Of a stretch of DNA of 64,000 bases, positions 17,657 to 47,873 are shown piece after piece. The position numbers were made by a program, and so were the translations under genes. Position 1 is the stretch's first letter; every line of letters starts with the position of its first letter. A model generated the notes under the pieces. It was given only the letters and a program-made list of their open reading frames with translations, was not told the DNA's origin and ran no database searches. Source of the stretch: an uncultured Gammaproteobacteria bacterium (GTDB lineage: Bacteria > Patescibacteriota > Microgenomatia > PFEM01 > JAPLYW01); NCBI GenBank assembly GCA_965230945.1, contig OZ246397.1, positions 304,749 through 368,748 on the forward strand, read 5' to 3'.

Positions 17657-17661
17657 AAACT

Positions 17662-18282: not shown

Positions 18283-18283
18283 T

Positions 18284-18655
18284 ATGAATCAACAAAAATT
18301 TCAACTAGGAAAAAAAGCTTTGTTTTTAACAATTCTTAGTTTTATTACTGTCTTTACCTGGGTTGGCTTTGAAGTCTATCAGGCTAGTAGTAAAACTACC
18401 ATTACCAAAGTAACCAAAAAACAAATGGCTCCCATTAATCCCAATATTAAGACCAAGATCATTGAAAGAATTGATGAGAGCCTTTCCTTTTCTCAAGAAG
18501 AAATGGACATTATTCCTGTCAGCGAAGCAACAGCTACTCCTACAGTAGAATTAAGCGAAGAGCCAACAGAAACAACTCCCTCAGCAGAAGCAACTGAAGA
18601 AGAAAGCGCAACTGGTAGTAGTCAAGCAACAGAAGAAAATGATACTCTAGAATAA
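18284..18655 (+). CDS. small membrane-anchored protein with an acidic T/E/S-rich C-terminal tail
   Basis: N-terminal TM 'ALFLTILSFITVFTWVGF', then a low-complexity acidic tail. Confidence 0.5.
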   Translation: MNQQKFQLGKKALFLTILSFITVFTWVGFEVYQASSKTTITKVTKKQMAPINPNIKTKIIERIDESLSFSQEEMDIIPVSEATATPTVELSEEPTETTPSAEATEEESATGSSQATEENDTLE

Positions 18656-18691
18656 ATAAACTTTTAATCTGCTCTGGGCGGACTGTTCGTT

Positions 18692-21892: not shown

Positions 21893-23134
21893 ATGAAAGT
21901 CGCTATTATTGGTGGTGGACCTACTGGCTTAATTATTGGTTTGAGAGTTAGTCAAAAAGGGCATCAGATAACCGTTTTTGAAAAAGGAAAAAAGATCGGC
22001 GGTTTAAGTAAAACTTTTAAAAGAAAAGACTGGCAATGGCCAGTTGAACAATTTTATCATCATCTTTTTTCTTCTGATAAAACCGCTAAAAAAGTTATCT
22101 CTCAGTTAGGATTAAAAGATAAACTCTTTTATTCACAACCCAAAACTTCTATTTTCAAAAATCATCAATTTCTAAGGCTTGATTCTCCCTTATCTGTTTT
22201 GAAATTTCCCTACTTCTCTTTCTTAGAAAAGGTAAGATTTGGTCTAGTTACTCTTTATCTTAAATTGAGTAATAATTTTCTCACTTTTGAAAAAATCCCG
22301 GCTGTTAAGTGGTTAAAAAAAGCTTATGGGAAAAAAGTCTATCAATTTTTATGGGAACCTCTTTTAAAATCAAAATTTCCTTTCAAAACTAGCCAAATAT
22401 CCCTCTCTTGGTTTTGGGCTAGAATTAAAGTAAGAGGCTCAAACCTTGGCTATCTTAAAGGAGGCTTTCAGGTTTTAACCGATAAGTTAGAAAAAAAGAT
22501 AAAAGAAAATGGTGGCCAAATACTAACCAATCACGAAATCAAAAGCTTTAAAAATTTAAAAAACTTTGACAAAATTATTTTCACCACTCCCATTTCTATA
22601 TTTTTAAAAATAGCCAAAAACAAACTCCCTAAAAGCTACCAAGAGCAGCTCAAAAAACTAAAAATGCTAGGTGCTCTTAGTCTAATTCTCGTCTCAAAAG
22701 AAAAATTTCTGAAAGATGGCACCTATTGGCTAAATATCAATGAAAAAAATTATCCTTTCGTTGCCGTAGTTGAACATACCAACTTTATCCCCTCAAAACA
22801 CTACAATAAAAATAAAATTCTTTATATTGGCGGTTATTATCCTCAAAATCATCCCTTTTTTAAAATGAACAAAGAGCAAATCTTAAAAGAATTCTTACCT
22901 TACCTTAAAAAAATCAATCCCCAATTTAATCTAAAAGCAATAATCGATTCTTACTTTTTCACTGATCTCAATACACAACCCTTAAGAATAGTTAACTATC
23001 TTCAATTAATGCCTTCTTCTAAAACACCCATTAAAAACACCTTTTTGGCCAACATGCAGTTAGTCTATCCTTATGATCGAGGCACTAACTATGCTTTTCA
23101 ATTAGGAATTAAAATTGCCAATGAAGTGGAATAA
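21893..23134 (+). CDS. FAD-dependent oxidoreductase (amine-oxidase / UDP-galactopyranose-mutase-like Rossmann type)
   Basis: N-terminal 'KVAIIGGGPTGLIIGL...VFEKGKKIGGL' dinucleotide-binding motif. 413 aa. Confidence 0.75.
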   Translation: MKVAIIGGGPTGLIIGLRVSQKGHQITVFEKGKKIGGLSKTFKRKDWQWPVEQFYHHLFSSDKTAKKVISQLGLKDKLFYSQPKTSIFKNHQFLRLDSPLSVLKFPYFSFLEKVRFGLVTLYLKLSNNFLTFEKIPAVKWLKKAYGKKVYQFLWEPLLKSKFPFKTSQISLSWFWARIKVRGSNLGYLKGGFQVLTDKLEKKIKENGGQILTNHEIKSFKNLKNFDKIIFTTPISIFLKIAKNKLPKSYQEQLKKLKMLGALSLILVSKEKFLKDGTYWLNINEKNYPFVAVVEHTNFIPSKHYNKNKILYIGGYYPQNHPFFKMNKEQILKEFLPYLKKINPQFNLKAIIDSYFFTDLNTQPLRIVNYLQLMPSSKTPIKNTFLANMQLVYPYDRGTNYAFQLGIKIANEVE

Positions 23135-24758
23135 AAAAATAATTTTCATCTTTTCTTTATTGGGTATTATCCTTTTAGGGGGGTTTTTACGCTTCTACAA
23201 TCTCAATTGGGATCAAGGTCACTTCTTTCATCCTGATGAAAGAAACATTGCTAACGCTGTTTCCAAAATTAGATTTTTTCATCAATTAAATCCTCAGTTC
23301 TTTGCCTACGGCAGCTTACCTATCTATCTCTATAGAGTTACAGGAGATATTTTAGTCGCTTTGACTAAAAACCAAGATTGGGTCTTAGAATGGCCCAATA
23401 TTAACATTATCGGCAGAAGCTTTTCGGCCCTTTTTTCTAGCCTATCTTTAATTTTGGTCTTCTTTTTAACTAAAAAAATATTTAATAAAAAAGTGGCTAT
23501 TTTGGCTACTTTTTTTACTGCCTTTTGTCCTTCCCTTATCCAAACGGCTCACTTCAGTGTAACCGAAAGTCTACTTGTCTTCTGGTTGCTTTTAATAAGC
23601 CTTCTTTCTTTAAAGATTGCCGATAAGGCAAGCTATAAAAATTATCTGGTGACAGGTTTTATTTGGGGACTAGCTTTAGCCACTAAGATCTCCGCCCTTT
23701 CCTTTGCTATCATTCCCTTAACCGCTCATCTTCTTTTCCATTTTAGAAAAATAAAAAACTATTTAAAACTTCTTGTCGGTTTTACCGTTGCTTTTCTAAC
23801 CTTTGCCTTTTTATCACCTTATACCTTCCTAGCCAAAGAAAAATTTTTGGAATCAATGAGATACGAAAGTGGTATTGTTTGGGGAACACTAAAAGTAGTT
23901 TATGTCCTACAGTTTGAAAAAACCTTACCCTATCTTTTTCAAATCAAAAACTTGCTTTGGCAAATGGGACCAACAGCTTTCTTGGGAATCCTGGGTCTTC
24001 TTGTCCTTTTAGTAATCGCCTTTAAAAAGAAAGAGAAAAAGATTTTTATTCTTCTTTCTTTTCCTATCGCTTACTTTCTCTATGCCGGGCTTTGGTACAC
24101 TAAATTCATCCGCTATATGATTCCCTTACTTCCTTTTTTAGCCATTGGTCTTGCCTGGCTAATTTACAAGATTCGTTTAAAAACTAAAATCTTTGGCAAT
24201 TTTTTAATCATTTTATGTCTCCTTACCAACCTTCTTTGGGCCTTAGCTTTTTTTTCTATCTATAGTAAAGAACAAACAAGAATAACGGCTTCAAAATGGG
24301 TTTACCAAAATATTAAAAAAGGGGATTACATTCTTAACGAACATTGGGATGACGGGCTACCCTTAAATCTTGACTCAAATCATCCCTCTAATTACAAAAT
24401 TGAACAATTAACCATCTATGAAGCCGACAATCAACAAAAACTTAACTACTATGCTGAAAAACTAGACCAAGCTAACTATCTCATCATTAACAGTCGCCGC
24501 CTCTACGGCACTTTAATGTTTTTACCAGAAAAATATCCATTAACCTCTAAATATTACCAACTGCTTTTTGAAAACAAACTAGGCTATAATAAAGTAGCTG
24601 AATTTACCTCCTATCCATCAATTTTAGGAATCGTAATTAATGATGATAAAAGTGAAGAAAGCTTCCAGGTTTATGATCACCCAAAAGTTATGATTTTTGA
24701 AAACAAAAAGATTTTTAACCAAAAGCAGTTTGAAGAGATTTTAAACATTTATGATTAA
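23115..24758 (+). CDS. GT-C fold membrane glycosyltransferase (ArnT/PMT-like, GT39/GT83 family)
   Basis: Polytopic. An 'HPDER' acidic motif sits in the first extracytoplasmic loop ('FFHPDERNIANAV'). Confidence 0.75.
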   Translation: MPMKWNKKIIFIFSLLGIILLGGFLRFYNLNWDQGHFFHPDERNIANAVSKIRFFHQLNPQFFAYGSLPIYLYRVTGDILVALTKNQDWVLEWPNINIIGRSFSALFSSLSLILVFFLTKKIFNKKVAILATFFTAFCPSLIQTAHFSVTESLLVFWLLLISLLSLKIADKASYKNYLVTGFIWGLALATKISALSFAIIPLTAHLLFHFRKIKNYLKLLVGFTVAFLTFAFLSPYTFLAKEKFLESMRYESGIVWGTLKVVYVLQFEKTLPYLFQIKNLLWQMGPTAFLGILGLLVLLVIAFKKKEKKIFILLSFPIAYFLYAGLWYTKFIRYMIPLLPFLAIGLAWLIYKIRLKTKIFGNFLIILCLLTNLLWALAFFSIYSKEQTRITASKWVYQNIKKGDYILNEHWDDGLPLNLDSNHPSNYKIEQLTIYEADNQQKLNYYAEKLDQANYLIINSRRLYGTLMFLPEKYPLTSKYYQLLFENKLGYNKVAEFTSYPSILGIVINDDKSEESFQVYDHPKVMIFENKKIFNQKQFEEILNIYD

Positions 24759-26778
24759 CGATCTTACCTACATTTTTAGTTGGTGGTTTTTATTTTTTGC
24801 TCTTGGTATTCTCTTTTTACCTTTAAATTACTTCTTCTTTAAAAAATTCTTTGACCATGGCTATATCTTCAGTAAAATATTAGCCCTCTTACTTATTAGC
24901 TACACTAGTTGGCTTTTAGCTAGCTTAAAAATCCTTCCTTTTAGCCAAATAAGCATTTTGGGGATCATTATTCTTTGGGGACTGATTAACCTTTTTATCA
25001 AAAAACTCAGCAAATTAAATATCAAGTCCTTGATTAAAAAGAATTGGAAAATCTTTTTACTTGAAGAGCTTCTTTTCATCTTTTGTCTGCTTGCTTGGTC
25101 TTTTGTCCGCGGTTTCCAGCCTAATATCCATGGTTTGGAAAAACTCATGGACTATGGCTTTGTTAATACCATCCTCCGTTCTAGCTTCTTTCCTCCTTTA
25201 GATATGTGGTTTTCAGGAGAAACCATTAACTATTACTACTTTGGTCATCTCATAACTGCTCTTTTAACTAAAATTACTAAAATTGACTCTGCCATTACCT
25301 ATAACCTCATGATCGCCAGCCTTTTTGCCTTTATCTTTACGGCCGTCTTTTCTTTAGCTGGTAACTTAACTTCTTTTTTTCTAAAAGAAAAAAGAATAAA
25401 GAATAAATTAAAATTTATCTTGTTAGGTGGCTTTTTAGCTGCCTTTTTCCTTAGCTTAGGAGGCAACTTACACCCTTTTTACTGGCTTGTAAAAGAAGGT
25501 ACCTTTGTCGGTTATTGGTACCCCGATGCCACCCGTTTTATTGTGGAAAAATTTGGGGCGGCTGATAATACCATTCATGAATTCCCTCTTTATAGTTTTG
25601 TGGTCGCTGACCTTCACAGCCATCTTTTAAACCTGCCTTTTGTCCTTCTTTTTATCGGCCTCTTAATAAGGCTTTTTTATCTAAAAATTATCAAACTAGC
25701 TGATTCCGTCTTTTACGGCTTTTTGCTGGGAATAATGTATATAACTAATCCCTGGGATCTACCAATTTATTTTCTTCTTTTATCTCTGGTTGTTTTTTAT
25801 CATTATTATCTAAACTTCAACTTAAGTTTTAAAACATTTCTTAAGACTTTCTTATTCTCTCTTAGCGTATTTTTACTAGCCATCATTTTTCCCTTGCCTT
25901 TCCATCTTCAATTTAACCCCATTGCCAATAAAATTGCCTTGGTTGACTTTAATTCTCCCCCATGGATGCTTTTGGTTCTATGGGGCTTACCGCTTTTTAT
26001 AAGCTTAAGCTTTCTACTAATTTTAAAAACAAACAAGATGAAATTAAGTAAAACTGATTCTTTTATCTTAACTTTACTTGGCGTCAGTTGGTTTCTAATT
26101 ATTGTTCCCGAGATTATTTACCTTAAAGATATCTACATTCATTCTTATCAACGAGCCAATACCATGTTTAAACTTACCTATCAGTCTTTTGTTATGTTCT
26201 CCTTATCAACCGGCTTCATTTTCTTAAGAATTTTCCTTCTTAAAAGCAAAAAGATAAAAATACTGCTTCTTCTTTTAAGCCTACCCTTTATCTTTTCTGT
26301 CTCTGTCTATCCTTACTTTGCTATCAAGTCTTTTTATGGTTTCCAAAATTACAAAGGTCTTTATGGTTTAAACCAGCTTAAGAATTTTTATCCAGACGAC
26401 TATCAAGGAATTCTATGGCTAAGAGAAAATATTAAAGGCCAACCAGTAATTGTCGAAGCTGTGGGTGAAAGTTACACTGACTTTGCCAGGGTTTCAGCTA
26501 ATACAGGTCTGCCTACCATCTTAGGCTGGCGAGTTCATGAATGGCTTTGGCGAGGTTCCTTTGACGAACCTGGCAAGAGAACTGAAGAAGTCAAAGAAAT
26601 TTATGAAAATAATGACATTGAGAAAACCCAAAAGCTTCTAGAAAAACATCAGGTTAGTCTAATTTTTATAGGCAGTTTAGAAAGAAAACAATATCTTAAT
26701 CTAAAAGAGGAAAAGTTCAGCAAACTAGGGAAGTCTATTTTCTCTTCTGGACAAACCAAGATTTACAAGATTGACTAA
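24751..26778 (+). CDS. large polytopic membrane protein, putative GT-C-type glycosyltransferase/polymerase
   Basis: 675 aa with more than 12 predicted TMs. Conserved 'HEFPLYSFVVADLHSHLLNLPF' loop. Confidence 0.6.
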   Translation: MINDLTYIFSWWFLFFALGILFLPLNYFFFKKFFDHGYIFSKILALLLISYTSWLLASLKILPFSQISILGIIILWGLINLFIKKLSKLNIKSLIKKNWKIFLLEELLFIFCLLAWSFVRGFQPNIHGLEKLMDYGFVNTILRSSFFPPLDMWFSGETINYYYFGHLITALLTKITKIDSAITYNLMIASLFAFIFTAVFSLAGNLTSFFLKEKRIKNKLKFILLGGFLAAFFLSLGGNLHPFYWLVKEGTFVGYWYPDATRFIVEKFGAADNTIHEFPLYSFVVADLHSHLLNLPFVLLFIGLLIRLFYLKIIKLADSVFYGFLLGIMYITNPWDLPIYFLLLSLVVFYHYYLNFNLSFKTFLKTFLFSLSVFLLAIIFPLPFHLQFNPIANKIALVDFNSPPWMLLVLWGLPLFISLSFLLILKTNKMKLSKTDSFILTLLGVSWFLIIVPEIIYLKDIYIHSYQRANTMFKLTYQSFVMFSLSTGFIFLRIFLLKSKKIKILLLLLSLPFIFSVSVYPYFAIKSFYGFQNYKGLYGLNQLKNFYPDDYQGILWLRENIKGQPVIVEAVGESYTDFARVSANTGLPTILGWRVHEWLWRGSFDEPGKRTEEVKEIYENNDIEKTQKLLEKHQVSLIFIGSLERKQYLNLKEEKFSKLGKSIFSSGQTKIYKID

Positions 26779-27707
26779 TCTCTCAAGAGATTTTGAACAT
26801 GCTGATGCACTTCTTGCCAATCACCTGATTCGGGAATCAAAACCCACTGGTTATCATATTTTTCTCTAGAAGGAGGCGGATTAATTAAATAACCGTCATT
26901 TAAAACTTCTGTTTTTATCTTGCTCTTTTTAATCTTCAAGCCTACCTTCAGTAAATCATCATATTTACTTGAGGAAATATCAGTTTTGATATTTTCATTA
27001 ACCAATTTAATTAATTGATTTAAACGACTGTAGCTAAAAACCACTTGAGGATTAAAAAGTCTTTTTTTAATAGCTAAAAGTAATCTTTGTTGTCGTTGAG
27101 AACGAGCAAAGTCAGTACCTTCGTCGCCTTCAGCATTTCTAGAACGAACATATTTTAAGGCTCTTTGGCCATCCATCCATTGTTTTCCAGCTTCAAAATG
27201 GATATCTTGGTAACGGCAATTAAATTCTGGATCTCCATCACATAAATCATCTTCTTTGCCAACAATCGGATAGCGATAGTCATCAAAAGAGCGTTCTACA
27301 TCTACTTCAATTCCATCCAGAAGATCAACCATTTTGGTAAAAACATCGAAATCAACAAGGAGGCTATAGTCTATTTTTTGGCCTAGAATATTACTGACAA
27401 CACTTTTAGTTTCATCCATACCCTCGTAATGATAGACACTATTTAATTTCGTTCTTAATGAGGGCACCCAAATATCCCGAGGCAAAGAAAGCAATAAACT
27501 CTTACCGCTTTCATTTTCTATAGAAAAAAAGATAATCGTATCGGTTAAATCATTACCAGTATGATTTTCACCAGCCATCCCTAAAACCAAGATGTTGGTT
27601 CGTCCTGATGGTGGTTTTAAAAGATAATAACCACCAACAATTAAAGAGCCAATAATTAAAAAGCTAATTCCTAACCAAAAAAGTAATTTTTTCCAACGAT
27701 TGTTCAT
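26775..27707 (-). CDS. LytR-CpsA-Psr (LCP) family cell-envelope polymer transferase
   Basis: N-terminal TM, then 'ILVLGMAG...DTIIF...LSLPRDIWV' LCP signature. Confidence 0.85.
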   Translation of the reverse strand: MNNRWKKLLFWLGISFLIIGSLIVGGYYLLKPPSGRTNILVLGMAGENHTGNDLTDTIIFFSIENESGKSLLLSLPRDIWVPSLRTKLNSVYHYEGMDETKSVVSNILGQKIDYSLLVDFDVFTKMVDLLDGIEVDVERSFDDYRYPIVGKEDDLCDGDPEFNCRYQDIHFEAGKQWMDGQRALKYVRSRNAEGDEGTDFARSQRQQRLLLAIKKRLFNPQVVFSYSRLNQLIKLVNENIKTDISSSKYDDLLKVGLKIKKSKIKTEVLNDGYLINPPPSREKYDNQWVLIPESGDWQEVHQHVQNLLRD

Positions 27708-37977: not shown

Positions 37978-38768
37978 TGTTAATTGATACCCACGCTCAC
38001 CTAGATTTCTCTCAATTTGATAATGACAGAGAGAAGATTATAAAAGAAACTAAAAGCTTAGGTATAAAAGTCATCAATGTTGGTTCTCATAGACAAGCTT
38101 GTCTAGATTCGGTCAATCTCGCTGAAAAACACAAAAATATCTATGCGGCTGTTGGCATTCATCCTCACGATACCGAAGATGTCAAAGATATAAATAAACT
38201 GATTGATTTCTTAGAAAAACTTAGCAGAGAACCTAAAGTGATCGCCATTGGTGAATGCGGCTTAGATTATCATCCTTTTGATCAAGGAAAATTTAGAAAA
38301 GATTTAAATTTAGATATTAAAAACAAACAAAAAGAAGTCTTTAAGGCTCAATTTGAATTAGCTCAGAAACTTAAACTTCCAATCATTATTCACAACCGCG
38401 ATTCTCACCAAGATCTTTTAAAGATTATTAAAGATTTCAAAGGTAGGGGTGTTATCCATTGCTTTTCTGGTGACAAAATCTTTTTAAAAAAGGTTTTAAA
38501 TCTAGGTTTTTATATTGGTTTTGACGGCAATATCACTTTTAAAAACGCCAAAAACCTACAAGAAATAGTTAAACTTACTCCTCTAGAAAAAATTTTAATA
38601 GAAACTGATTGTCCATTTTTAGCACCCGAACCTTTCCGTGGTTTGAGAAACGAACCTAAAAATGTTAAAATAGTGGCTGAATTTATTGGGGAATTAAAGC
38701 AGATCTCTTTCAGTAAGGTTGCCCAAACAACAACCCAAAATGCTAAAAATCTTTTTAAAATCAAATAA
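37977..38768 (+). CDS. tatD: TatD-family metal-dependent DNase/hydrolase
   Basis: 'LIDTHAHLDF', 'IGECGLDY', 'IHNRD'. 263 aa. Confidence 0.9.
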   Translation: MLIDTHAHLDFSQFDNDREKIIKETKSLGIKVINVGSHRQACLDSVNLAEKHKNIYAAVGIHPHDTEDVKDINKLIDFLEKLSREPKVIAIGECGLDYHPFDQGKFRKDLNLDIKNKQKEVFKAQFELAQKLKLPIIIHNRDSHQDLLKIIKDFKGRGVIHCFSGDKIFLKKVLNLGFYIGFDGNITFKNAKNLQEIVKLTPLEKILIETDCPFLAPEPFRGLRNEPKNVKIVAEFIGELKQISFSKVAQTTTQNAKNLFKIK

Positions 38769-40276
38769 TGAAGAAAGCTGAACAAATAAACTACAGAAAA
38801 CAAAGACTTTTGGAAATGCTGCCAGGAAGCATCACCTGGCTGGTCATTCTTTTCCCTATTTGGGGCGCTTTTTTCATTCCTCGAATTGTCGCTTACTTCA
38901 CCATTGCCTTTTTGGTCTTTTGGCTTTATCGTTCTTTCCAAAGCGGTATCTTAGGTATTAGAGGTTATATTAAAATTCGCCGCAGTGAACAAACTGACTG
39001 GAAAGAAAAGTATTTAAAAGAAAAAGATAAAAATTCTTTAAGCTGGAATCAAATAAAACATGTTGTCATCATTCCCAATCTCAATGAAACAATAGAAGTC
39101 ATCTCTAAAACCTTAAAAAACTTAAGTCAACAAAAAGATATTAATAAAAACCAGCTCATCGTTGTTTTAGCCATGGAAGGAAGAGCGGCTGATTCAGACC
39201 AGAGAGCCAAAGAATTACTGCAAAAGTTTAAAGATAAATTTGGCAAACTGGAAGCCATCATCCACCCAGATGGAATTATAGGTGAAGTTAAAGGCAAGGC
39301 TTCTAATGAAGCTTGGGCCGCCAAAAAAATCAAAAAGATAGTTGTTAATCAAGAAGGTTATGATATTAATAAAATCACCATCACCAGCTGTGATGCTGAT
39401 GCTCATATTCACCTTAAGTACTTCTCAACTCTGACTTATCAATTCGCCATCAATAAAAACCGTTACCTGCGTTTTTGGCAATCACCCATCTGTTGGCACA
39501 ATAATTTTTGGAAAGTTCCTGCCTTTGTCAGAATCATCGGTACTTTAAGCAATGTTGGCTATCTAGCCAACATTCAAGAACCAGACGGGTTGTTTTTTAA
39601 CTACTCAACCTACTCAACTTCACTAAAACTTCTCGACGAGGTTGGCTATTGGGATACTGATATTATTCCTGAAGATTGGCATATCTTTTTACAGTCCTTT
39701 TTCCATAAAAAAGGCCTTGTTGAAGTTGAACCTATTTTCTTACCCACAAGTATTGATGCTCCAGAGGGTAAAACTCATTTTGCCGCCTTAAAAAACCGCT
39801 ATGAACAATGCAAGCGACACGCTTGGGGAGCAACAGACATCCCTTACGCCATCAACAAAGCCATGCGACACAAAGAAATTCCTTTTTTAATTAGATTTTT
39901 TCGTGTCTACAAGGTTATTGAAAGCCACATCCTCTGGGCCACCAACTGGTTTTTATTAACCTTAGGTGCCTGGGTACCAGCTTTAATCAACCCCTTCTTT
40001 AAGCAAACTGCTCTTGGTTACAACCTACCTAAAGTAGCCCAGTGGGTCTTAAATATCTGTCTCCTGTTTTTGATTATCATGATTGTCGTCGATCGAGCCA
40101 TGCGTCCCAAGCCACCCAAGAAAGAAGTTCGTCGCGGATTTGGCTTTTTGGAAATTATCCAATGGCTTTTAATGCCTATTGCCGCTCTATTTATGGCTGT
40201 CCTCCCTGCTATTGATTCTCAAACCAGATTAATGCTTGGTAAAAGATTAGAATACCACGTCACTAAAAAGATCTAA
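38768..40276 (+). CDS. membrane-embedded GT2-family glycosyltransferase
   Basis: N-terminal TMs, a GT-A core 'VVIIPNLNETIEV...ITSCDADAH', then a C-terminal TM bundle. Confidence 0.7.
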   Translation: MKKAEQINYRKQRLLEMLPGSITWLVILFPIWGAFFIPRIVAYFTIAFLVFWLYRSFQSGILGIRGYIKIRRSEQTDWKEKYLKEKDKNSLSWNQIKHVVIIPNLNETIEVISKTLKNLSQQKDINKNQLIVVLAMEGRAADSDQRAKELLQKFKDKFGKLEAIIHPDGIIGEVKGKASNEAWAAKKIKKIVVNQEGYDINKITITSCDADAHIHLKYFSTLTYQFAINKNRYLRFWQSPICWHNNFWKVPAFVRIIGTLSNVGYLANIQEPDGLFFNYSTYSTSLKLLDEVGYWDTDIIPEDWHIFLQSFFHKKGLVEVEPIFLPTSIDAPEGKTHFAALKNRYEQCKRHAWGATDIPYAINKAMRHKEIPFLIRFFRVYKVIESHILWATNWFLLTLGAWVPALINPFFKQTALGYNLPKVAQWVLNICLLFLIIMIVVDRAMRPKPPKKEVRRGFGFLEIIQWLLMPIAALFMAVLPAIDSQTRLMLGKRLEYHVTKKI

Positions 40277-40340
40277 GTTACATTTCTTAATTCTTTTTGA
40301 GGGGTTCTTAATTTGCTATACTATTTGCTATACTTGAAAT

Positions 40341-41627
40341 ATGAATCAGTTTACCACCAGCCTCTGGGGGGACGAGGCTTGGGCTGCTACTTTAGCCGTT
40401 AAACCCATTTCCCAAATTATAAAAATTGTTGCCACGGATACTTCTCCGCCTTTTTACTACCTTCTCCTTCATGGATGGATGAAAATCTTTGGGTCTTCAG
40501 AGATAGCCATAAGGAGTCTTTCCTTTTTGTTCTTTCTTGGCACAGTACTGACTGTCTATCTCATTGCCCGATATCTCTGGGGGAGAAAAACTGGTATTTT
40601 AGCTGCCCTTTTGGCCTTTACTAATCCTTTTCTCTTTACTTACGCTTTTGAGGGAAGAATGTATTCACTTTTAGTCCTAACCTCTACCTTATCCATCTAC
40701 TTTTTCTTAAAGAAAAATCGGCTTGGATTTATTTTAGCAACCGCCGCTGCCTTGTATACCCATCATTTCTCTCTCTTCATCGTTATTTTTGAGGGGCTCT
40801 GGGTAATTAAAGAAAATCGGGGAAAGAATTTTAAACAAATTATAAAAAACCTTTCAGATTTTTTTATTATTGGTCTTTTATATCTCCCCTGGTTTTATCC
40901 CCTTTACTACCAAACATCACTAGTTGGCAGTGGTTTTTGGTTGGGCAAGCCGACTTTTGAGGTATTCAAAGACACCATTCACAACTTTTTAGTAGGTTCC
41001 GGGAAAGAGATTTCTCGTCAATTAGCCTACTGGATAATATTTGCCGTCTTACTTTTACGAAAGTGGACTAAGGAAAAAGAAAAATGGGTCTTCCTTTTAG
41101 GCTGGTTTTTTACTCCCCTAATTTTAACTTTTATCATTTCTCGATTTTTTCAACCAATCTTTTACGACCGCTATATGTTAATGGCTATTCCAGCAGCTTC
41201 AGTTTTAATCGCCTCCAATAGAAGAAAACTTTCTTTTATCTTTATCTTTATGGTTATCTTTTTTTTAGCAACAGTTAATCACGCTTACTTTTTCCATCCC
41301 GTCAAAAGGCCGTTTAGGGAACTCGCGGTCTTCATTAAAAAAGAGGCAAGAGAAATACCACTTGTTAACTATAACGCTGCTGCTCATCATCTTTGGGAAT
41401 CAAAATATTATGACCTTCAGGCACCAATCTATTCCCCCCAACCACTTCCTTTCTATACGGGAACAGCCTTAATGGAGGAAGGCGATATAATTAAAAAAAT
41501 ACCGGATGTAAAAGAAATCGGAGTGATAACCAGCGCCCCAATTGAAGAAACAAACATCCCTGGCTATCATCTGATGAAAGCCCAAAAATTTGGCCAGCTC
41601 TCATTTATGTGGATGGGAAAAGATTAA
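40341..41627 (+). CDS. GT-C fold glycosyltransferase (GT39/ArnT-like)
   Basis: 'SLWGDEAWAATLA...SPPFYYLLLHGWMKIFG' N-terminal loop. Polytopic. Confidence 0.7.
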   Translation: MNQFTTSLWGDEAWAATLAVKPISQIIKIVATDTSPPFYYLLLHGWMKIFGSSEIAIRSLSFLFFLGTVLTVYLIARYLWGRKTGILAALLAFTNPFLFTYAFEGRMYSLLVLTSTLSIYFFLKKNRLGFILATAAALYTHHFSLFIVIFEGLWVIKENRGKNFKQIIKNLSDFFIIGLLYLPWFYPLYYQTSLVGSGFWLGKPTFEVFKDTIHNFLVGSGKEISRQLAYWIIFAVLLLRKWTKEKEKWVFLLGWFFTPLILTFIISRFFQPIFYDRYMLMAIPAASVLIASNRRKLSFIFIFMVIFFLATVNHAYFFHPVKRPFRELAVFIKKEAREIPLVNYNAAAHHLWESKYYDLQAPIYSPQPLPFYTGTALMEEGDIIKKIPDVKEIGVITSAPIEETNIPGYHLMKAQKFGQLSFMWMGKD

Positions 41628-43116
41628 AATGAAAAAATTATTTTCTTCACACTGGGTTTTTTTATTATTAGGGTTCGTCTTTCTTCTGCGTCTTCCTTTA
41701 CTATTCGAGCCCTTTACTTACGCTGATGAAGGCATTTATTTAACTTTAGGTCAGGCGGTAAGAAAAGGTTTAGTTCTTTATCGAGATATTCATGATAATA
41801 AGCCACCTATGCTCTATTTAACAGCCGCTATTACCGGTAGTTTTCCTGTTTACCGAGCAATCCATTTTCTTTGGAGCTTTGCTACGATATTTATTTTTTA
41901 TAAACTAAGCCAAATTGTATTTCTAAAAAACAGGAAGGCGGTTATCATCTCCACTAGTACCTTCGCCATCCTTACCAGCCTTCATACTTTCGAGGGAAAT
42001 ATTGCCAATGCGGAAAATTTTATGCTCCTTCCGACTCTCATAGCTTTCTTTCTTATTTTTAAGTTTATTAACAAACCAGCGAGCAATCAAAAATTCCTCA
42101 AATGTTGGTTCTTGATAGGCATCCTTCTTTCTCTGGCAGTTCTTTTTAAGGTACCGGCTATCTTCGACTTTTTCGCTGCTTTGATCTTTATTTTTCTAAT
42201 TTTCCTTGATCAAAAACAAAAAAACTATTTATTATTCCCATCATTACTCATCGGCTTTCTTCTACCCATTTTAATCACTGCTCTCTATTTTGCTTACAAA
42301 AACGCTTTAAGTCAGTATCTTACGGCTGCTTTTCTTCAAAATCTTCCCTATCTTTCTTCTTGGGGAGGAGGTAGTCCAAAAATAGGAGAACTGCCAATAC
42401 TACTTTTAAGCCGGGTAGCTATGGTTTTTTTGCTTATTATCTTTCTTTTTATTTTCCGAAAAAAAATTTGCTTAAATATTAAATTTATTCTTCTCTGGTT
42501 TTCCTTTTCTCTTTTTGCCGCTCTTTTATCTTCACGTCCTTATCCTCATTATTTAATTCAAGTCCTTCCTTCTTTTTCCTTGGCTTTTGGTTTTTGGACC
42601 CTGACTAAAGCAAAAACCTTGCTTAAGCTCATCCCCACTTCTTTAACATTGATCTTTATTTTGACTTTTGCAAGTTTTCGCTTTTGGTACTACCCCAACC
42701 TTCCCTATCTAGCCAACTTTTACCAGTTCGCAGTTGGAATAAAATCTCGCCAAGATTACCTCAATTATTTCGGTGGCCAAACAAAAAGCCTTTATGAAAC
42801 GGCTAGTTTTATTAAAAACCATACCGATAAAAAAGAAAAAATCTTTATCTGGGGAACCCAACCATCTCTTTACAGCTTAACTAATCGCTTGCCTGTAGGC
42901 CGCTATACCGTCGCCTATCATATCATCGACTTTGACGGTTATAGGGAAACGATGCTAGCTTTGACAAACAAACCACCGCGCTGGATCATTGTTACCCCTG
43001 ATGAGAAAAAATCATTCCCACAACTAGAAAATTTATTAGACTATGACTACACTCTCTATAAAAAGATCGGTGAGAATAAAATCTTCTATCGTATCCCAAA
43101 GATCTCCCGATTATGA
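41590..43116 (+). CDS. GT-C fold glycosyltransferase (PMT_2/ArnT-like). The likely start is the Met at about 41629.
   Basis: 'YADEGIYLTLGQAVRKGLVLYRDIHDNKPPMLY' is the typical PMT_2 N-terminal loop. Confidence 0.7.
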   Translation: MASSHLCGWEKIKMKKLFSSHWVFLLLGFVFLLRLPLLFEPFTYADEGIYLTLGQAVRKGLVLYRDIHDNKPPMLYLTAAITGSFPVYRAIHFLWSFATIFIFYKLSQIVFLKNRKAVIISTSTFAILTSLHTFEGNIANAENFMLLPTLIAFFLIFKFINKPASNQKFLKCWFLIGILLSLAVLFKVPAIFDFFAALIFIFLIFLDQKQKNYLLFPSLLIGFLLPILITALYFAYKNALSQYLTAAFLQNLPYLSSWGGGSPKIGELPILLLSRVAMVFLLIIFLFIFRKKICLNIKFILLWFSFSLFAALLSSRPYPHYLIQVLPSFSLAFGFWTLTKAKTLLKLIPTSLTLIFILTFASFRFWYYPNLPYLANFYQFAVGIKSRQDYLNYFGGQTKSLYETASFIKNHTDKKEKIFIWGTQPSLYSLTNRLPVGRYTVAYHIIDFDGYRETMLALTNKPPRWIIVTPDEKKSFPQLENLLDYDYTLYKKIGENKIFYRIPKISRL

Positions 43117-43128
43117 TAGAATAGTTAC

Positions 43129-43500
43129 GTGCGCGCCCCAATTATCAAAACATTAAGATTAATCCCCTCAACGGAAAACAAGAGCTTAAGAAAGTTTCTA
43201 AAACTGGCTTTTATCATTATCCTCGCTGAAATCTTAATCATCCTTTTTTCTTTATCCTTCCTGCCGCCTCAAGTCCCTCTTTTTTATTCCCGTCCTTGGG
43301 GTGGAGAACAACTGGTTCATCCTTTGTATCTTTTCATCATTCCTTTGGCAAACCTCCTCGTTCTTATCCTCAATTCAGTCTTAATTTCCTTTATCCCTAA
43401 AAAAGATAGTCTCATTAGGCAAATCCTGACCATCGGCGTTTTGATTTTCAATTCTTTATCATTAATTACCTTAATACAAATTATTAGATTGGTTATTTGA
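43129..43500 (+). CDS. small membrane protein, hypothetical
   Basis: 123 aa, hydrophobic. 4-bp overlap with the next gene. Confidence 0.4.
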   Translation: MRAPIIKTLRLIPSTENKSLRKFLKLAFIIILAEILIILFSLSFLPPQVPLFYSRPWGGEQLVHPLYLFIIPLANLLVLILNSVLISFIPKKDSLIRQILTIGVLIFNSLSLITLIQIIRLVI

Positions 43501-44567
43501 TGGATTTTCTTACTAAAAACTTAATCATCTATCCTTTAGCTGTCGCTTTTTTTATTTCCTTAATATTTACTCCCTTAACCATCAAATTGGCCTGGAAATT
43601 GGGCTTAATTGATGACCCTCAAAAAAGAAAACACCCGGCCAAATTACATAAAAAAGCCATTCCTAGAGCTGGCGTTATTCCTATTTGGGTAGCTCTTATC
43701 ATCACTAGTCTCATTTTTCTGCCTCCTGACAGATACCTTTTAGGCATCTTAGGCGGAGCTAGTCTTTTACTTATCTTAGGCATTCTTGACGATAAATATG
43801 ATCTTAATCCTTATTTAAGATTAATTGGCTGCCTTTTAGCTGCCAGCTTGGCTGTTTTTTCCGGAGTTAAAATCTTTTTCATTACCAATCCTTTAGGCGG
43901 TGATATTATTCACTTTGTTCAACCCATGGCTATCATTTTGGCTATCTTATGGATCAGCTTTTTGGCCAACATCACCAACTGGTCGTCTGGCTTTGACGGC
44001 CAATTACCGGGCATTGTCGTCATTGCCGCTTTAACAATTGGCTTTCTAAGTTTCCGTTTTTCCGCTGATATTACTCAATGGCCAGTAACTATTCTTGCTG
44101 CCATCACCGCCGGGGCCTTTTTAGGCTTTTTACCTTACAACTTCTTCCCGCAAAAAATCATGCCTGGCTATGGCGGTGGCACCTTAGCTGGATTTATGCT
44201 GGCCACCTTAGCTATTCTTTCGACCACCAAAATCGGTACTTTGCTTGTCGTTTTAGGTATTCCTTTCATTGATGCCTTGTATTCCATCACCAGAAGAACT
44301 ATAACTGGCCGTTCACCAGTATGGGGCGATCGCGGTCATCTTCATCATAAGCTTTTAGACGAATGGCATTGGGGGAAAAGAAAAACCGCCCTTTTTTATT
44401 GGCTCATTACCGCCTTGCTGGGTATTTTAGCTTTAAATTTGCGAAGTATCCAGAAATTCTATACAATCGTTATGTTAGTAGTCATTATTGGTAGTTTGCT
44501 TTTATGGTTCAATTTTTTCTCAACCTATTTAAATCGACCAGGCCGAGACAAACCCTCAAAAACCTAA
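43497..44567 (+). CDS. GT4-family polyprenyl-phosphate sugar-1-phosphate transferase (MraY/WecA-like)
   Basis: 'LGILDDKYDLNP', 'ITNWSSGFDGQLPGI', 'NFFPQKIMPGYGGGTLAGF'. About 10 TMs. Confidence 0.8.
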   Translation: MMDFLTKNLIIYPLAVAFFISLIFTPLTIKLAWKLGLIDDPQKRKHPAKLHKKAIPRAGVIPIWVALIITSLIFLPPDRYLLGILGGASLLLILGILDDKYDLNPYLRLIGCLLAASLAVFSGVKIFFITNPLGGDIIHFVQPMAIILAILWISFLANITNWSSGFDGQLPGIVVIAALTIGFLSFRFSADITQWPVTILAAITAGAFLGFLPYNFFPQKIMPGYGGGTLAGFMLATLAILSTTKIGTLLVVLGIPFIDALYSITRRTITGRSPVWGDRGHLHHKLLDEWHWGKRKTALFYWLITALLGILALNLRSIQKFYTIVMLVVIIGSLLLWFNFFSTYLNRPGRDKPSKT

Positions 44568-45445
44568 GTATTTTTGCCCCTTTGGTCTTCTCAGGCAGTC
44601 TTTTTATAGCTAAAAGCTTTTGGATTACAGCTTTGGCTGTTTTCATCTTCACCATCATGACCTCCTCTATTTACCTGATCAACGACATTATTGATTTACC
44701 TAAAGATCGTCTTCATCCTATTAAAAAGAAAAGGCCTATTGCCTCAGGTAAATTGCCTATCCCCGTCGCTTTGTTTATTGCCATTTTTGGTGTCTTCCTT
44801 TCTTTATCTCTATCTTTTTCACTAGGTTTTTTCTTCTTTTTAACCTTACTTATCTATTTTATTTTGCAAATCAGCTATACCTTTTGGCTAAAAAACATCA
44901 TTGTCTTAGATATTCTCATCATTGCCAGTGGTTTTATTCTCAGAGTTTATGCCGGTGCTTTTGCCATTAACGTCCATATGAACGTTTGGTTTTTGCTTTG
45001 TGTCATCTCCCTTTCTTTATTTCTAGCTGCTGGTAAAAGAAGAGCCGAATTGGCGGTGTTGCAAAAAAGAGCCCCTAATCATCGCCGTACACTAACTTTC
45101 TACACCAACGATCTCTTAGATGCTTATCTGGCCATGTTTGCCAACGGAACTTGGCTGGTTTACGCCCTGTTTACCTTTTTTGCCCCTCAGCCAATTATCA
45201 TTAAAAAAACTTCACTCATATTACTCAACCTCCCCTTAACCTTAGCCGGCATCAACAAGTGGTTGATGATTACCATCCCTTTTGTTATTTATGGCATTAT
45301 GAGATATATGAATATCGTTTATCAGGGCCAAAAAGCCGAATCTCCAGAAAAGGTACTTCTCTCAGATAAACCTCTTTTGATTACGGTTGTCTTGTGGGGA
45401 ATCTTGGTCGTTACCATCCTTTATGGTATTAACCCTGGTCTCTAA
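44504..45445 (+). CDS. UbiA-family prenyltransferase, decaprenyl-phosphate 5-phosphoribosyltransferase (DPPR synthase)-like
   Basis: 'RPRQTLKNLSIFAPLVFSG' N-terminus and 'NDIIDLPKDRLHP' Asp-rich motif. Confidence 0.7.
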   Translation: MVQFFLNLFKSTRPRQTLKNLSIFAPLVFSGSLFIAKSFWITALAVFIFTIMTSSIYLINDIIDLPKDRLHPIKKKRPIASGKLPIPVALFIAIFGVFLSLSLSFSLGFFFFLTLLIYFILQISYTFWLKNIIVLDILIIASGFILRVYAGAFAINVHMNVWFLLCVISLSLFLAAGKRRAELAVLQKRAPNHRRTLTFYTNDLLDAYLAMFANGTWLVYALFTFFAPQPIIIKKTSLILLNLPLTLAGINKWLMITIPFVIYGIMRYMNIVYQGQKAESPEKVLLSDKPLLITVVLWGILVVTILYGINPGL

Positions 45446-45465
45446 ACAAAAAAGCAAGAAAGGAG

Positions 45466-45813
45466 GTGAAAAAAATGAACTGGAAAAAAGCTATTGGCTT
45501 TGGTGTTATCCTTTGGGTTTTGATGTTTACCATTGTTTCCTTCTTTATTGCCTTTAATATTTACAGGTTTGCCTGGATGCAAGTCGTAACAGCTATCATC
45601 AGCGGAGTTATCGCTTTTGTCTTAGCTGGTTATGTTAAACCCAAAAAGATCGTTAGTGCTTTAAATTATGGTCTAGTCTGGGTAGCCGTTGGATTAATCT
45701 TAGATGCCATCGTAACCATGAAGTTTAACGCCGCCATCTTTGCCTCTTGGCCTTTGTGGTTAGGCTATGCCTTAGTTCTTGTTGCCCCAATAATAAGGGT
45801 TAAAAAGAAGTAA
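45466..45813 (+). CDS. small 4-TM membrane protein, possibly a GtrA-like flippase subunit
   Basis: 115 aa with four hydrophobic helices. Located at the end of the glycan cluster. Confidence 0.4.
   Translation: MKKMNWKKAIGFGVILWVLMFTIVSFFIAFNIYRFAWMQVVTAIISGVIAFVLAGYVKPKKIVSALNYGLVWVAVGLILDAIVTMKFNAAIFASWPLWLGYALVLVAPIIRVKKK

Positions 45814-46931: not shown

Positions 46932-47873
<942 letters not shown>

Follow-up and report, generated by a model that had tools for sequence, protein, structure and literature searches.

Systems that combine a PPPRS enzyme, a flippase and a GT-C glycosyltransferase attach Ribf, Xylf or Araf residues to glycans; they have been characterised in Citrobacter and Pseudomonas and are called widespread (Kelly 2024, PMC11127046), but neither this paper nor its SI contains a CPR example. 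In Citrobacter youngae O1/O2, the gene for an Rv3806c-homologous, UbiA-fold synthase adjoins the GT-C gene(s) (ORF15-ORF14-ORF12). The pilin D-arabinofuranosylation system of Pseudomonas aeruginosa PA7/Pa5196 comprises a PPPRS homolog, DprE1/E2 homologs and the GT-C enzyme TfpW. The mycobacterial and corynebacterial arabinan pathway consists of Rv3806c, Rv3807c, DprE1/DprE2, Rv3789 and the Emb/Aft GT-Cs, and its polymer is WecA-primed and Lcp1-ligated. The streptococcal rhamnose-polysaccharide side-chain module (the primer GacO and GacI-GacJ-GacK-GacL) resembles the locus described here in its WecA-like primer, in a GT-C that decorates a wall polysaccharide and in a lipid-P-sugar donor synthase helped by a small membrane protein. 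Its donor synthase, however, belongs to the GT2 enzymes and produces Und-P-GlcNAc out of UDP-GlcNAc, rather than being a PRPP-dependent UbiA-fold enzyme, and no homology to GacJ was detected for the small membrane protein of the locus here (p4).

Mycobacteria and Gram-negative bacteria are already known to use the general mechanism; in the CPR lineage considered here it was previously undescribed. We could identify a Microgenomates operon that we are inclined, with some reservation, to assign to a cell-envelope glycan with a polyprenyl-phospho-ribofuranose (lipid-linked pentofuranose) donor. It lies in a 64,000-nucleotide stretch of DNA, which was analysed as a whole and is subsequently referred to as the window. 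The genes and their predicted products are:

p1, 38768..40276, + strand: 502 aa; membrane-integrated, processive-type GT2 glycosyltransferase
p2, 40341..41627, + strand: 428 aa; GT-C glycosyltransferase of the PMT_2/ArnT type
p3, 41629..43116, + strand: 495 aa, counted from the ATG at 41629; GT-C glycosyltransferase
p4, 43129..43500, + strand: 123 aa; conserved small membrane protein with 3 TM helices
p5, 43497..44567, + strand: 356 aa; polyprenyl-phosphate N-acetylhexosamine-1-phosphate transferase, MraY/WecA superfamily, WecA-like
p6, 44504..45445, + strand: 313 aa; polyprenyl-phosphate 5-phosphoribosyltransferase, DPPR-synthase/PPPRS homolog with UbiA fold
p7, 45466..45813, + strand: small 4-TM protein with hydrophobic segments

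The original prediction had named seven co-directional genes, and the ORF scan of the window found all seven to be genuine, all on the + strand and at exactly the coordinates predicted (38768-45813). The proposed identities were borne out for six of them, p1 as GT2, p2 and p3 as GT-C enzymes, p4, p5 and p6. The start of p3 is most likely the ATG at 41629, rather than the mechanical ORF start at 41590. The TatD gene overlaps p1 by 1 nt, gaps of 64, 1 and 12 nt follow at the p1-p2, p2-p3 and p3-p4 junctions, p4 and p5 overlap by 4 nt, and 20 nt separate p6 from p7. The p5/p6 overlap measures 64 nt, is read in different frames and covers the first 21 codons of p6. Because no overlap or gap exceeds 64 nt and no convincing internal terminators were found, the genes have the structure of an operon.

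Close relatives of p6 occur in at least 584 loci of a collection with one genome per species. We compared synteny in 80 related loci, 58 of which had sufficient upstream sequence for counting p1 and the GT-C genes. Among Microgenomates, the order p1-(p2)-p3-p4-p5-p6 is retained in genomes whose p6 is as little as 46% identical, and since nearly all of the 80 loci show the arrangement, it is beyond chance. The p1-p6 block is a genuine operon, kept throughout a lineage of ultra-small CPR bacteria (Microgenomates). Its core is made up of the GT2 (p1, 53/58 loci), p4 (69/80 at E<1e-5), the phosphoglycosyltransferase (PGT) p5 (77/80) and the PPPRS p6. The GT-C content is variable: p2 is optional (only 10/58 loci), and 14 of the 58 operons lack any GT-C, which means that PPPRS and GT-C are not always linked in cis.

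The flanking genes (MetRS, TatD, a PEGA-SH3 protein and GroEL/ES) are equally syntenic, so that some of the adjacency is due to a frozen backbone, not to function. It is conceivable, if rather unlikely, that the genes are no more than such neighbors, with p1 making an independent exopolysaccharide, p4/p5 priming a separate wall polymer, and p6 feeding GT-Cs encoded anywhere in the genome. This would fit the synteny, which takes in unrelated housekeeping genes all the way from RmuC to GroES, the variable GT-C content and two variant loci (L054 and L074) in which p6 is accompanied by an SDR and PBP2, without p3, p4 and p5. The overlaps, however, are of the translational-coupling type, with 4 nt at p4/p5 and an out-of-frame p5/p6 overlap of 40–70 nt conserved in 72/73 loci. 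Moreover, every member acts on glycans that are polyprenyl-phosphate-linked or membrane-associated, which would hardly be expected of random neighbors.

The assignment of p6 is central to the shared-pathway reading. The protein matches Pfam UbiA (E 7e-19) and, among the NCBIfam models, passes the DPPR-synthase model NF008978 (213.1 bits, cutoff 207); two further DPPR-synthase models reach 194 (NF008977) and 153 bits (NF008976), as compared with at most 36 bits for all aromatic/heme prenyltransferase and other UbiA subfamily models. Its best solved relative is M. tuberculosis Rv3806c (PDB 8j8j, E 6.5e-35). Of 13 substrate-binding residues established by experiment in Rv3806c, 11 are identical in p6 and invariant in 24 orthologs (R22, K28, Y70, N73, D77, K87, R90, Q135, Y138, K143 and K191); the other two are substituted (Y157 to F, K208 to R). 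The Tyr-to-Phe change is also present in some mycobacteria, according to the Rv3806c structure paper. The conserved residues are those binding phosphoribose, pyrophosphate, Mg and the lipid phosphate. They include the phosphoribose-binding residues that the same paper describes as not common to ordinary UbiA enzymes. The subfamily score over a curated cutoff, the relationship to Rv3806c and the conserved binding residues support p6 as a membrane phosphoribosyltransferase, as judged from its sequence. Public records label p6 a 'UbiA prenyltransferase family protein' or '4-hydroxybenzoate polyprenyltransferase', and an ordinary aromatic or heme prenyltransferase (MenA, UbiA or CtaB-like) would make the glycan context coincidental. 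We regard this as extremely improbable, as p6 reaches only 17–36 bits with the models for heme o synthase, UbiA and GGGP synthase and the Rv3806c-specific phosphoribose-binding residues are invariant. The predicted DPPR-synthase subfamily was thereby upheld against a grouping with the MenA/UbiA quinone prenyltransferases.

The neighboring p5 matches PF00953 (E 3.4e-23) and aligns over its full length with the NCBIfam WecA model, at 89 bits against a cutoff of 326; MraY scores 33.6 bits, and the only sequence matches in the PDB are to MraY (E 2e-8). It contains DD and DRGHLHH motifs and a clade-specific NxVNW(S/A)(K/S)GxDG motif in place of the canonical NxxNxxDGxDG. These features support a WecA-like enzyme that would load HexNAc-1-phosphate on polyprenyl phosphate. 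The label GT4 given to it earlier is appropriate in the sense of Pfam Glycos_transf_4 (MraY/WecA superfamily), but not as CAZy GT4. Upstream of it, p4 carries an invariant LPPxVPLFYSxPWGExQL motif after TM1 that is predicted to be extracytoplasmic (alignment of 26 orthologs). It matches 988 representative clusters at E<=1e-3, nearly all of them stand-alone proteins of 105–140 aa; hints of DUF1648 are faint (5/26 members, best E 0.061). In one natural fusion (P0449), a p4-like N-terminus is followed by a WecA-like enzyme with 36% identity to p5, which makes p4 a candidate partner of this phosphoglycosyltransferase, although the fusion is a single case and possibly a frameshift artefact.

The GT2 enzyme p1 has two N-terminal TM helices, a GT-A domain, interface helices and four C-terminal TM helices. 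The copy in the window has no Pfam match and only a weak match to the PgaC C-terminus; PF13632 (Glyco_trans_2_3) is present in its orthologs, whose names are of the cellulose/PNAG-synthase-like kind. An AF2 model (pLDDT 90.4) had as its best Foldseek hits in the PDB the Chlorella-virus and Xenopus hyaluronan synthases (E 2.7e-10), BcsA and chitin synthase, and the motifs D209xD211, E302-D303 and Q347xxR350(W) are invariant, with H351 in the window copy where orthologs have W. The orthologs, the motifs and the model support p1 as a hyaluronan/cellulose-synthase-like processive GT2. A lipid-PP primer is normally dispensable for synthase-type GT2 enzymes, and it is therefore not evident how p1 and p5 could both serve one polymer.

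GT-C enzymes as a class use polyprenyl-phosphate-linked sugars at the external side of the membrane. The two predicted ArnT/PMT-like transferases were recovered: p2 matches PMT_2 (E 8.4e-12; the NCBIfam mannosyltransferase MT1671 scores 35 bits, far under its cutoff), and p3 resembles ArnT, PMT and ALG-type enzymes. Both have GDE and PP..Y loop motifs (hhalign, 283 columns, E 0.0056, low probability). The GT-Cs are closer to these enzymes than to the Emb/Aft arabinofuranosyltransferases. Some p3 orthologs, like p2, match PMT_2/PMT, families that include protein O-mannosyltransferases, and Pmt4, DPY19 and AglB are among the structures closest to p3. The same donor and GT-C chemistry might serve proteins (type IV pilins, S-layer or other surface proteins), in parallel to pilin arabinosylation by TfpW in P. 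aeruginosa, a system that uses a PPPRS homolog (cited in Kelly 2024, PMC11127046). PilN and PilO are encoded in the window, and the PEGA-SH3 surface protein is conserved next to p6. We consider protein acceptors unlikely: the operon core of GT2 synthase, PGT and PPPRS consists of glycan builders, GT-C fold likeness does not tell acceptors apart, and no pilin gene lies within the operon.

With a DPPR synthase sharing an operon with GT-Cs, a GT2 and a WecA-like enzyme, the polyprenyl-phospho-pentose surface glycan of the original prediction is still the best reading, and ribofuranose, which had been offered as a possible donor, is the parsimonious sugar because the cluster lacks an epimerase. 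The product of p6 would be dephosphorylated by an enzyme encoded elsewhere and then flipped outward. Polyprenyl-P-ribofuranose would be used by p3, and in the source genome also by p2, for adding pentofuranose to a glycan primed by p5 and/or polymerised by p1. In this scheme p4 may be a small subunit acting with p5, and the p5/p6 overlap could couple synthesis of the acceptor-priming and donor-forming enzymes, rivals for one lipid carrier. An LCP enzyme, for instance the one encoded at 26775-27707, may then link the polymer to peptidoglycan.

The operon has no recognisable flippase, 5'-phosphatase or epimerase. Neither the cluster nor the window yielded a 5'-phosphatase (HAD-PRP or PAP2) or a GtrA, SMR or MATE flippase, and domain searches of the scanned window ORFs found no DprE1, DprE2, Glf or PRPP-synthetase domains, confirming the predicted absence of DprE1/DprE2. 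It is possible, but decidedly improbable, that epimerases encoded elsewhere turn the donor into arabinofuranose or xylofuranose, as in a true analogue of DPA-dependent arabinan synthesis. DprE1/E2 and the ORF13 epimerase are precedents, an SDR epimerase gene lies directly upstream of p6 in both variant loci, and the analysis covered 64 kb of a source genome with a longest contig of about 615 kb; the parsimony argument points to ribofuranose.

The operon is best read as following, in a CPR version, the published logic of "three-component pentofuranose" systems (Kelly 2024). As in Citrobacter, the donor expected without an epimerase is polyprenyl-P-Ribf. In contrast to that system, both a fused HAD phosphoribose-phosphatase domain and a MATE flippase are missing, the GT-Cs are of the PMT_2/ArnT-like kind, the PPPRS gene overlaps that of the WecA-like PGT and is accompanied by genes for a synthase-type GT2 and a novel small membrane protein, and the position is in the lineage-wide core genome, not in a variable O-antigen locus. 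With the arabinan pathway it shares an Rv3806c homolog with conserved active-site residues, and the overall scheme agrees as well: priming by a WecA-type enzyme, polymerisation by a GT2, transfer of pentofuranosyl units by GT-Cs using a lipid-P donor, and an LCP ligase, here encoded in the same window. It differs in that the window lacks DprE1/E2, an Rv3807c-type PAP2 and a GtrA-like Rv3789, that the GT2 is of the multi-TM synthase type whereas GlfT2 is soluble, and that the sugar is probably ribose, not arabinose. The P. aeruginosa system likewise joins a non-actinobacterial DPPR-synthase homolog to a GT-C, but has epimerases and a pilin-linked locus, while the operon here has neither epimerase nor pilin gene. 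The suggested placement of the pathway outside the Actinobacteria is in itself no novelty, given the published Citrobacter and Pseudomonas cases (PMC11127046).

The ATG at 45475, which an AGGAGG Shine-Dalgarno sequence precedes, is the likely start of the small protein p7. It has no domain matches in Pfam or NCBIfam, GtrA and SMR included, and no homologs among the 80 related loci; YchF directly follows p6 in the closest relative (L001). The protein is strain-specific, and its predicted membership in the system is doubtful. A second island had been proposed as a galactofuranose arm. Its contents were as described, an amine-oxidase-type FAD protein, a PMT_2 GT-C and a DUF2298/Chlor_Arch_YYY protein. 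The galactofuranose assignment is not supported and fails the refutation test set for it in the original prediction, as the FAD protein groups with NF005560/PRK07233 (403 bits) and not with Glf, to which it aligns only over the Rossmann motif (residues 2-63). Its relatives in the PDB are PF1083 and protoporphyrinogen oxidase, and we classify it as PRK07233/protoporphyrinogen-oxidase-like. The SDR epimerase encoded directly beside p6 in L054 and L074 echoes the auxiliary epimerases of Kelly 2024.

The seven co-directional open reading frames (ORFs) p1 to p7 at 38768-45813, originally predicted to form a glycan-assembly cluster, were recovered at exactly these coordinates by ORF calling. Their spacing is operon-like.

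Genes of the cluster, with the junction to the preceding gene
38768-40276, + strand: p1, predicted membrane GT2; 1 nt overlap with the TatD gene
40341-41627, + strand: p2, GT-C type; 64 nt gap
41629-43116, + strand: p3, GT-C type, from its probable start at 41629; 1 nt gap
43129-43500, + strand: p4, small 3-TM protein; 12 nt gap
43497-44567, + strand: p5, WecA-like; 4 nt overlap
44504-45445, + strand: p6, UbiA-fold, putative polyprenyl-phosphoribose synthase (PPPRS); 64 nt out-of-frame overlap
45466-45813, + strand: p7, ORF; 20 nt gap

Scans for promoter and terminator consensus sequences performed no better than on shuffled sequence, and an Rfam search returned tRNA-Cys as its only match. The window has a GC content of about 37% and is dense in housekeeping genes (PNPase, IF-2, NusA, DnaK/DnaJ/GrpE, MurJ, PilN/O, MetRS, TatD, YchF, GroEL/ES and LeuRS). 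Nearly all of its 2-kb bins from 1 to 64000 have a negative GC skew and the cumulative skew drops monotonically to -4.5, which places the whole window on one replichore, without an origin or terminus signal.

We ran Pfam and NCBIfam on 47 window ORFs (the larger, non-shadow ones). Three of the seven cluster ORFs (p2, p5 and p6) were identified directly. The other four (p1, p3, p4 and p7) had no significant match to either collection, and we therefore turned to orthologs and structure prediction. The family identities proposed for the cluster hold, with caveats on the start of p3 and on the label 'GT4' for p5, which is correct as the Pfam name of the MraY/WecA family but not as CAZy GT4.

The most informative member is p6. 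It matches UbiA (PF01040; E 7.1e-19, 68.5 bits, cutoff 34.2) throughout its 313 aa, leaving no additional domain and no fused HAD phosphatase. It passes NF008978, the model for decaprenyl-phosphate phosphoribosyltransferase, with 213.1 bits (cutoff 207), and stays under the cutoff on two sister DPPR-synthase models (194 vs 234 and 153 vs 474). On the models for heme o synthase, UbiA, GGGPS and ChlG it reaches 17-36 bits. An ordinary aromatic, heme or GGGP prenyltransferase is extremely improbable: at most 36 bits on every such model stand against 153-213 on the DPPR-synthase models.

The best solved relative of p6 is Rv3806c of M. tuberculosis (8j8j, E 6.5e-35). This enzyme binds Mg2+ through N73 and D77, pyrophosphate through R22, K87, R90, Y138, K143 and K208, ribose through N73 and Q135, the 5'-phosphate through K28, Y70 and Y157, and the lipid phosphate through K28, Y157 and K191; its phosphoribose-binding sites are absent as conserved sites from ordinary UbiA enzymes (PMC10994848). 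We transferred these residues to p6 via a HMMER alignment and judged their conservation in 24 orthologs. Eleven of the 13 (R22, K28, Y70, N73, D77, K87, R90, Q135, Y138, K143 and K191) are identical in p6 and invariant in the orthologs. The remaining two are Y157, which corresponds to F144, a change to Phe also reported in some mycobacteria (PMC10994848), and K208, which is R195 in the window copy and Lys in 17 of the 24 orthologs. Subfamily scores and binding residues together bear out the assignment of p6 to the DPPR synthases, apart from MenA/UbiA. Homology thus supports a role in which p6 would catalyse the reaction of PRPP and polyprenyl phosphate to polyprenyl-phosphate-ribose-5-phosphate.

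The true start of p6 lies inside p5, in a different frame. R13 and K19 of p6, the counterparts of the essential R22 and K28 of Rv3806c, are both encoded within this overlap (44504-44567). Public gene models of p6 begin downstream of the conserved N-terminus, with 287 aa for the public proteins P0001 and P0002 and 262 aa for P0004. All three leave out R13 and K19, and the 287-aa models thus lose catalytic residues. The start codon of p6 is systematically mis-annotated in public records.

The overlapping partner p5 matches PF00953 (E 3.4e-23). Its best NCBIfam model is WecA, with 89 bits over the full length, under the equivalog cutoff of 326; MraY gives 34 bits. The DD and DRGHLHH motifs are present in the p5 clade. 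In place of the canonical NxxNxxDGxDG we find NxVNW(S/A)(K/S)GxDG, the first Asp of DGxDG being replaced by Lys or Ser, a change that recalls eukaryotic and archaeal GPT variants. This replacement marks a divergent subfamily of the MraY/WecA superfamily. Judged from its sequence, p5 is a WecA-like phosphoglycosyltransferase of that subfamily and, by homology, would make a polyprenyl-PP-HexNAc primer.

The small protein p4 has three TM helices and, after the first, an invariant LPPxVPLFYSxPWGExQL motif that is predicted to face outward. Pfam gave only faint hints of DUF1648, and neither Pfam nor NCBIfam showed a GtrA, SMR or MATE match. The family comprises 988 representative clusters (E<=1e-3), almost all of them stand-alone proteins of 105-140 aa. 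The public protein P0449 (475 aa) carries a p4-like N-terminus (motif LPPEVPLWYTLPWGAERL) fused to a WecA-like enzyme with 36% identity to p5, which keeps the canonical DWLDGLDG. No other fusion occurs among the best 150 representatives of the family, and this single case could be a frameshift artefact. This fusion and the 4 nt overlap of the two genes hint that p4 may be a partner of the phosphoglycosyltransferase p5.

For p1, profile searches against PDB sequences were unproductive, as they were for p3, making structure prediction necessary. Window p1 has no Pfam match, and its orthologs carry PF13632 and are named cellulose/PNAG-synthase-like. In the model (pLDDT 90.4), a GT-A domain and interface helices lie between two TM helices at the N-terminus and four at the C-terminus. 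Foldseek matched it best to the PDB structures of hyaluronan synthases (E 2.7e-10), BcsA (TMq 0.52-0.54) and chitin synthases. D209xD211, E302-D303 and Q347xxR350 are invariant across orthologs, and W351 of the QxxRW motif is His in the window copy. Homology and the model support p1 as a probable processive membrane GT2.

Both p2 (PMT_2, E 8.4e-12) and p3 are PMT_2/ArnT-like by Pfam and fold, and neither is of the Emb/Aft arabinofuranosyltransferase type. Their homology supports the use of polyprenyl-phosphate sugars on the outer side of the membrane. With GT-C enzymes of this kind, protein glycosylation is another conceivable outcome. The synthase-type GT2 and the primer enzyme of the same operon, which build glycans, speak against it, and we consider it unlikely. 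A role of p7 as a conserved flippase was ruled out: it has no homolog in any of the 80 related loci described below, and no family match, including GtrA, SMR and MATE.

Homologs of p6 number more than 5,000 at E<=1e-10, mostly unnamed or called 'UbiA prenyltransferase', from Patescibacteria and Microgenomates. In a collection with one genome per species we located at least 584 p6 loci and analysed the best 80 of them by searching their ORFs with the window proteins; the nearest genome in the searched contig collection was only 83% identical. All of these best 80 come from Microgenomates-type MAGs (Shapiro-, Blackburn-, Chisholm-, Beckwith-, Davies- and Woesebacteria). The titles of many of the records read 'uncultured Gammaproteobacteria', 'Pseudomonadales', 'Candidatus Bathyarchaeia archaeon', 'Clostridia' or 'Nevskiaceae'; as taxonomy, these labels are evidently wrong or placeholders. 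The order MetRS-TatD-p1-(p2)-p3-p4-p5-p6 is kept down to 46% p6 identity. Gene content was counted in the 58 loci with sufficient upstream sequence.

Gene content of the operon in 58 loci
p1-p3-p4-p5-p6: 26 loci
p1-p4-p5-p6, lacking a GT-C gene, p1 with two extra N-terminal TM helices: 14 loci
Full set including p2, as in the window: 10 loci
Other reduced forms: 8 loci

In Daviesbacteria-type operons without any GT-C gene (loci L050, L056, L070 and L072), p1 is about 590 aa long. It is extended at the N-terminus by about 88 residues, in inserts of 27 aa and 61 aa that contain two more hydrophobic helices. Two variant loci, L054:2715-6640 and L074:2768-6599, lack p3, p4 and p5. Their p6 is about 51% identical; the gene before it encodes an NAD-dependent epimerase/dehydratase (PF01370, E 1e-40), and the one after it, in convergent orientation, a PBP2-type transpeptidase. 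These loci may represent an epimerase-equipped version of the donor pathway.

The out-of-frame overlap of p5 and p6 is present in 72 of 73 loci and measures 40-70 nt (55 nt in 45 loci, 64 nt in 17). Synteny reaches outward from RmuC to GroES. The adjacency to MetRS and TatD, whose genes metG and tatD are a common housekeeping pair, belongs to the genome backbone, and synteny by itself says less about function here than it would elsewhere. For the same reason we rejected TatD as the missing phosphatase. Backbone synteny would suit functionally separate neighbours that only share a position. The nearly universal p5/p6 overlap speaks against this explanation, to which we give little credence.

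Several expected pathway components were looked for. As originally predicted, the DprE1/DprE2 pair is not in the window: neither enzyme, nor Glf or a PRPP synthetase, was found among the 47 ORFs scanned with Pfam and NCBIfam, and a pair of FAD_binding_4 oxidase (DprE1) and SDR reductase (DprE2) is also absent from the recurrent neighbours in the 80 loci. An arabinose or xylose donor would call for epimerases encoded elsewhere, and we regard it as improbable. The same ORFs gave no HAD or PAP2 match that could represent a 5'-phosphoribose phosphatase (HAD PRP, PAP2 of Rv3807c type or PA7_6246 type). The cluster has no flippase of MATE or GtrA/SMR type, and the only MOP/MATE-like protein of the window is MurJ (15000-16709), 22 kb away. 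The flippase may be non-homologous to known types or encoded elsewhere.

We propose the following mechanism as the reading with the best support. Starting from PRPP, p6 would form polyprenyl-phosphate-ribose-5-phosphate, which would be dephosphorylated and flipped to give polyprenyl-phosphate-ribofuranose. The GT-C enzyme or enzymes would use this donor to attach pentofuranose to a glycan that p5 and/or p1 produce, and the product could be joined to peptidoglycan by an LCP enzyme such as that at 26775-27707. The conserved p5/p6 overlap would co-regulate two enzymes sharing one lipid carrier. Against the mechanism weigh the negative searches of cluster and window for a phosphatase, dedicated flippase, epimerase and PRPP synthetase. 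In addition, a quarter of the operons (14 of 58) have no GT-C gene in cis, and a synthase-type GT2 would have to cooperate with a lipid-PP primer.

Taken jointly, these data allow a tentative reading, which we consider possible rather than probable. Microgenomates (class Microgenomatia, CPR/Patescibacteria) would hold, at a fixed core-genome position, an undescribed envelope-polymer machinery that combines three elements. One would be the synthase-type GT2. The second would be a WecA-like primer enzyme that is divergent and has an obligatory small subunit of a new kind, the p4 family with its roughly 1000 sequence clusters and no known domain. The third would be a donor synthase that makes lipid-linked ribose from PRPP, its gene always overlapping that of the primer enzyme. 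Such a machinery would yield a wall glycopolymer or lipoglycan that contains ribofuranose and defines the lineage. Proteins unrelated to known ones would flip and dephosphorylate the donor, p4 being a candidate for one of these roles.

Among described systems, the nearest in concept is the three-component pentofuranosylation of Kelly 2024, in which a PPPRS, homologous to Rv3806c and carrying a fused HAD phosphatase, acts with a MATE flippase and a GT-C enzyme (GT136), epimerases being optional; CPR is mentioned neither in the text nor in the SI (PMC11127046). PPPRS and GT-C are common to both, here as p6 with p2 and p3 in one operon. In contrast to that system, the window operon lacks its phosphatase and flippase types, its PPPRS gene is tightly tied to a WecA-like gene and to the p4 family, a synthase-type GT2 is part of it, and in Microgenomates it is a core-genome feature of the whole lineage. 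It differs from the mycobacterial arabinan pathway in having no DprE1/E2, Rv3807c, Rv3789 or Emb/Aft-type GT-Cs. Our literature search found no relevant paper joining CPR/Patescibacteria with DPPR synthase, arabinan or ribofuranose. With a DPPR-synthase p6 in one operon with GT-Cs, a GT2 and a WecA-like enzyme, the polyprenyl-phospho-pentose glycan pathway first proposed for this cluster was largely right. Since the mechanism class is already known, what is new is a lineage-wide variant of it in CPR bacteria.

CPR/Patescibacteria account for a large part of bacterial diversity, and their cells live attached to others. To our knowledge, almost nothing is known experimentally about their cell envelopes. 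A core-genome operon predicted to yield a ribofuranose-bearing surface glycan offers a testable hypothesis on the chemistry of their surface, host attachment and phage receptors included, and p1-p6 offer a lineage marker for Microgenomates. The PRPP-dependent lipid-pentose donor pathway, which is validated as a drug target in tuberculosis and diversifies serotypes in enterobacteria, would extend to a third major bacterial group. The p4 proteins are flagged as a conserved family of small membrane proteins.

A second island had been proposed as the galactofuranose arm of the same pathway. It consists of three genes with overlaps of 20 nt and 8 nt, after which comes an LCP gene in convergent orientation.

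Genes of the second island (21893-26778) and the adjoining LCP gene
21893-23134: FAD protein (NF005560/PRK07233, 403 bits)
Second gene: GT-C protein (PMT_2/PMT)
Third gene: DUF2298/Chlor_Arch_YYY protein (506 bits)
26775-27707, convergent: LCP (LytR-CpsA-Psr) ligase

We rejected the FAD protein as a UDP-galactopyranose mutase (Glf). It has no GLF domain match, and Glf structures align at residues 2-63 only, the dinucleotide-binding motif (E ~2e-4). Behind NF005560, its next-best HMMs are HpnE, CrtD and the protoporphyrinogen-oxidase type, and its best PDB matches are PF1083 (uncharacterised; 3e-13) and protoporphyrinogen oxidase. With a PRK07233/protoporphyrinogen-oxidase-like protein and no sugar-nucleotide context, a galactofuranose arm is not supported. 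This amine-oxidase/phytoene-desaturase-like flavoenzyme may act on the polyprenol carrier or a lipid-linked sugar. The third protein has no solved relative by sequence.

Gene order including the LCP gene is identical in four close metagenomic relatives (about 70% identical), and a metagenome scan with the FAD protein found only close relatives with identical synteny. Beyond common envelope-glycan themes we found nothing that links the island to the p1-p6 operon; in the 80 loci, the surroundings of the cluster contain no homolog of the FAD protein or of the LCP enzyme. Locus L049 alone has a DUF2298 gene, 3.6 kb upstream of the cluster, separated from it by a D-Ala-D-Ala carboxypeptidase gene, an unassigned ORF and a gene for a class I (Glu/Gln-type) tRNA synthetase.

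Convergent to the operon, at 46932-47873 (- strand), lies a gene for a membrane-anchored protein with PEGA, an acidic linker and SH3_3. A homolog follows p6 in 68 of the 80 loci, mostly directly and with a median gap of about 10 nt; in the window, p7 and YchF separate the two. The protein may sit at the surface or bind the wall and be related to the glycan, or its position may be mere backbone synteny. Directly upstream of the second island, the co-directional stretch 17099-21871 encodes PilN and PilO, then a small ORF, a protein of 457 aa that has purple-acid-phosphatase-N/fn3/Big_13 domains, and lastly two ORFs that match no family; its gene order recurs in the metagenomic relatives L081, L083 and L084.
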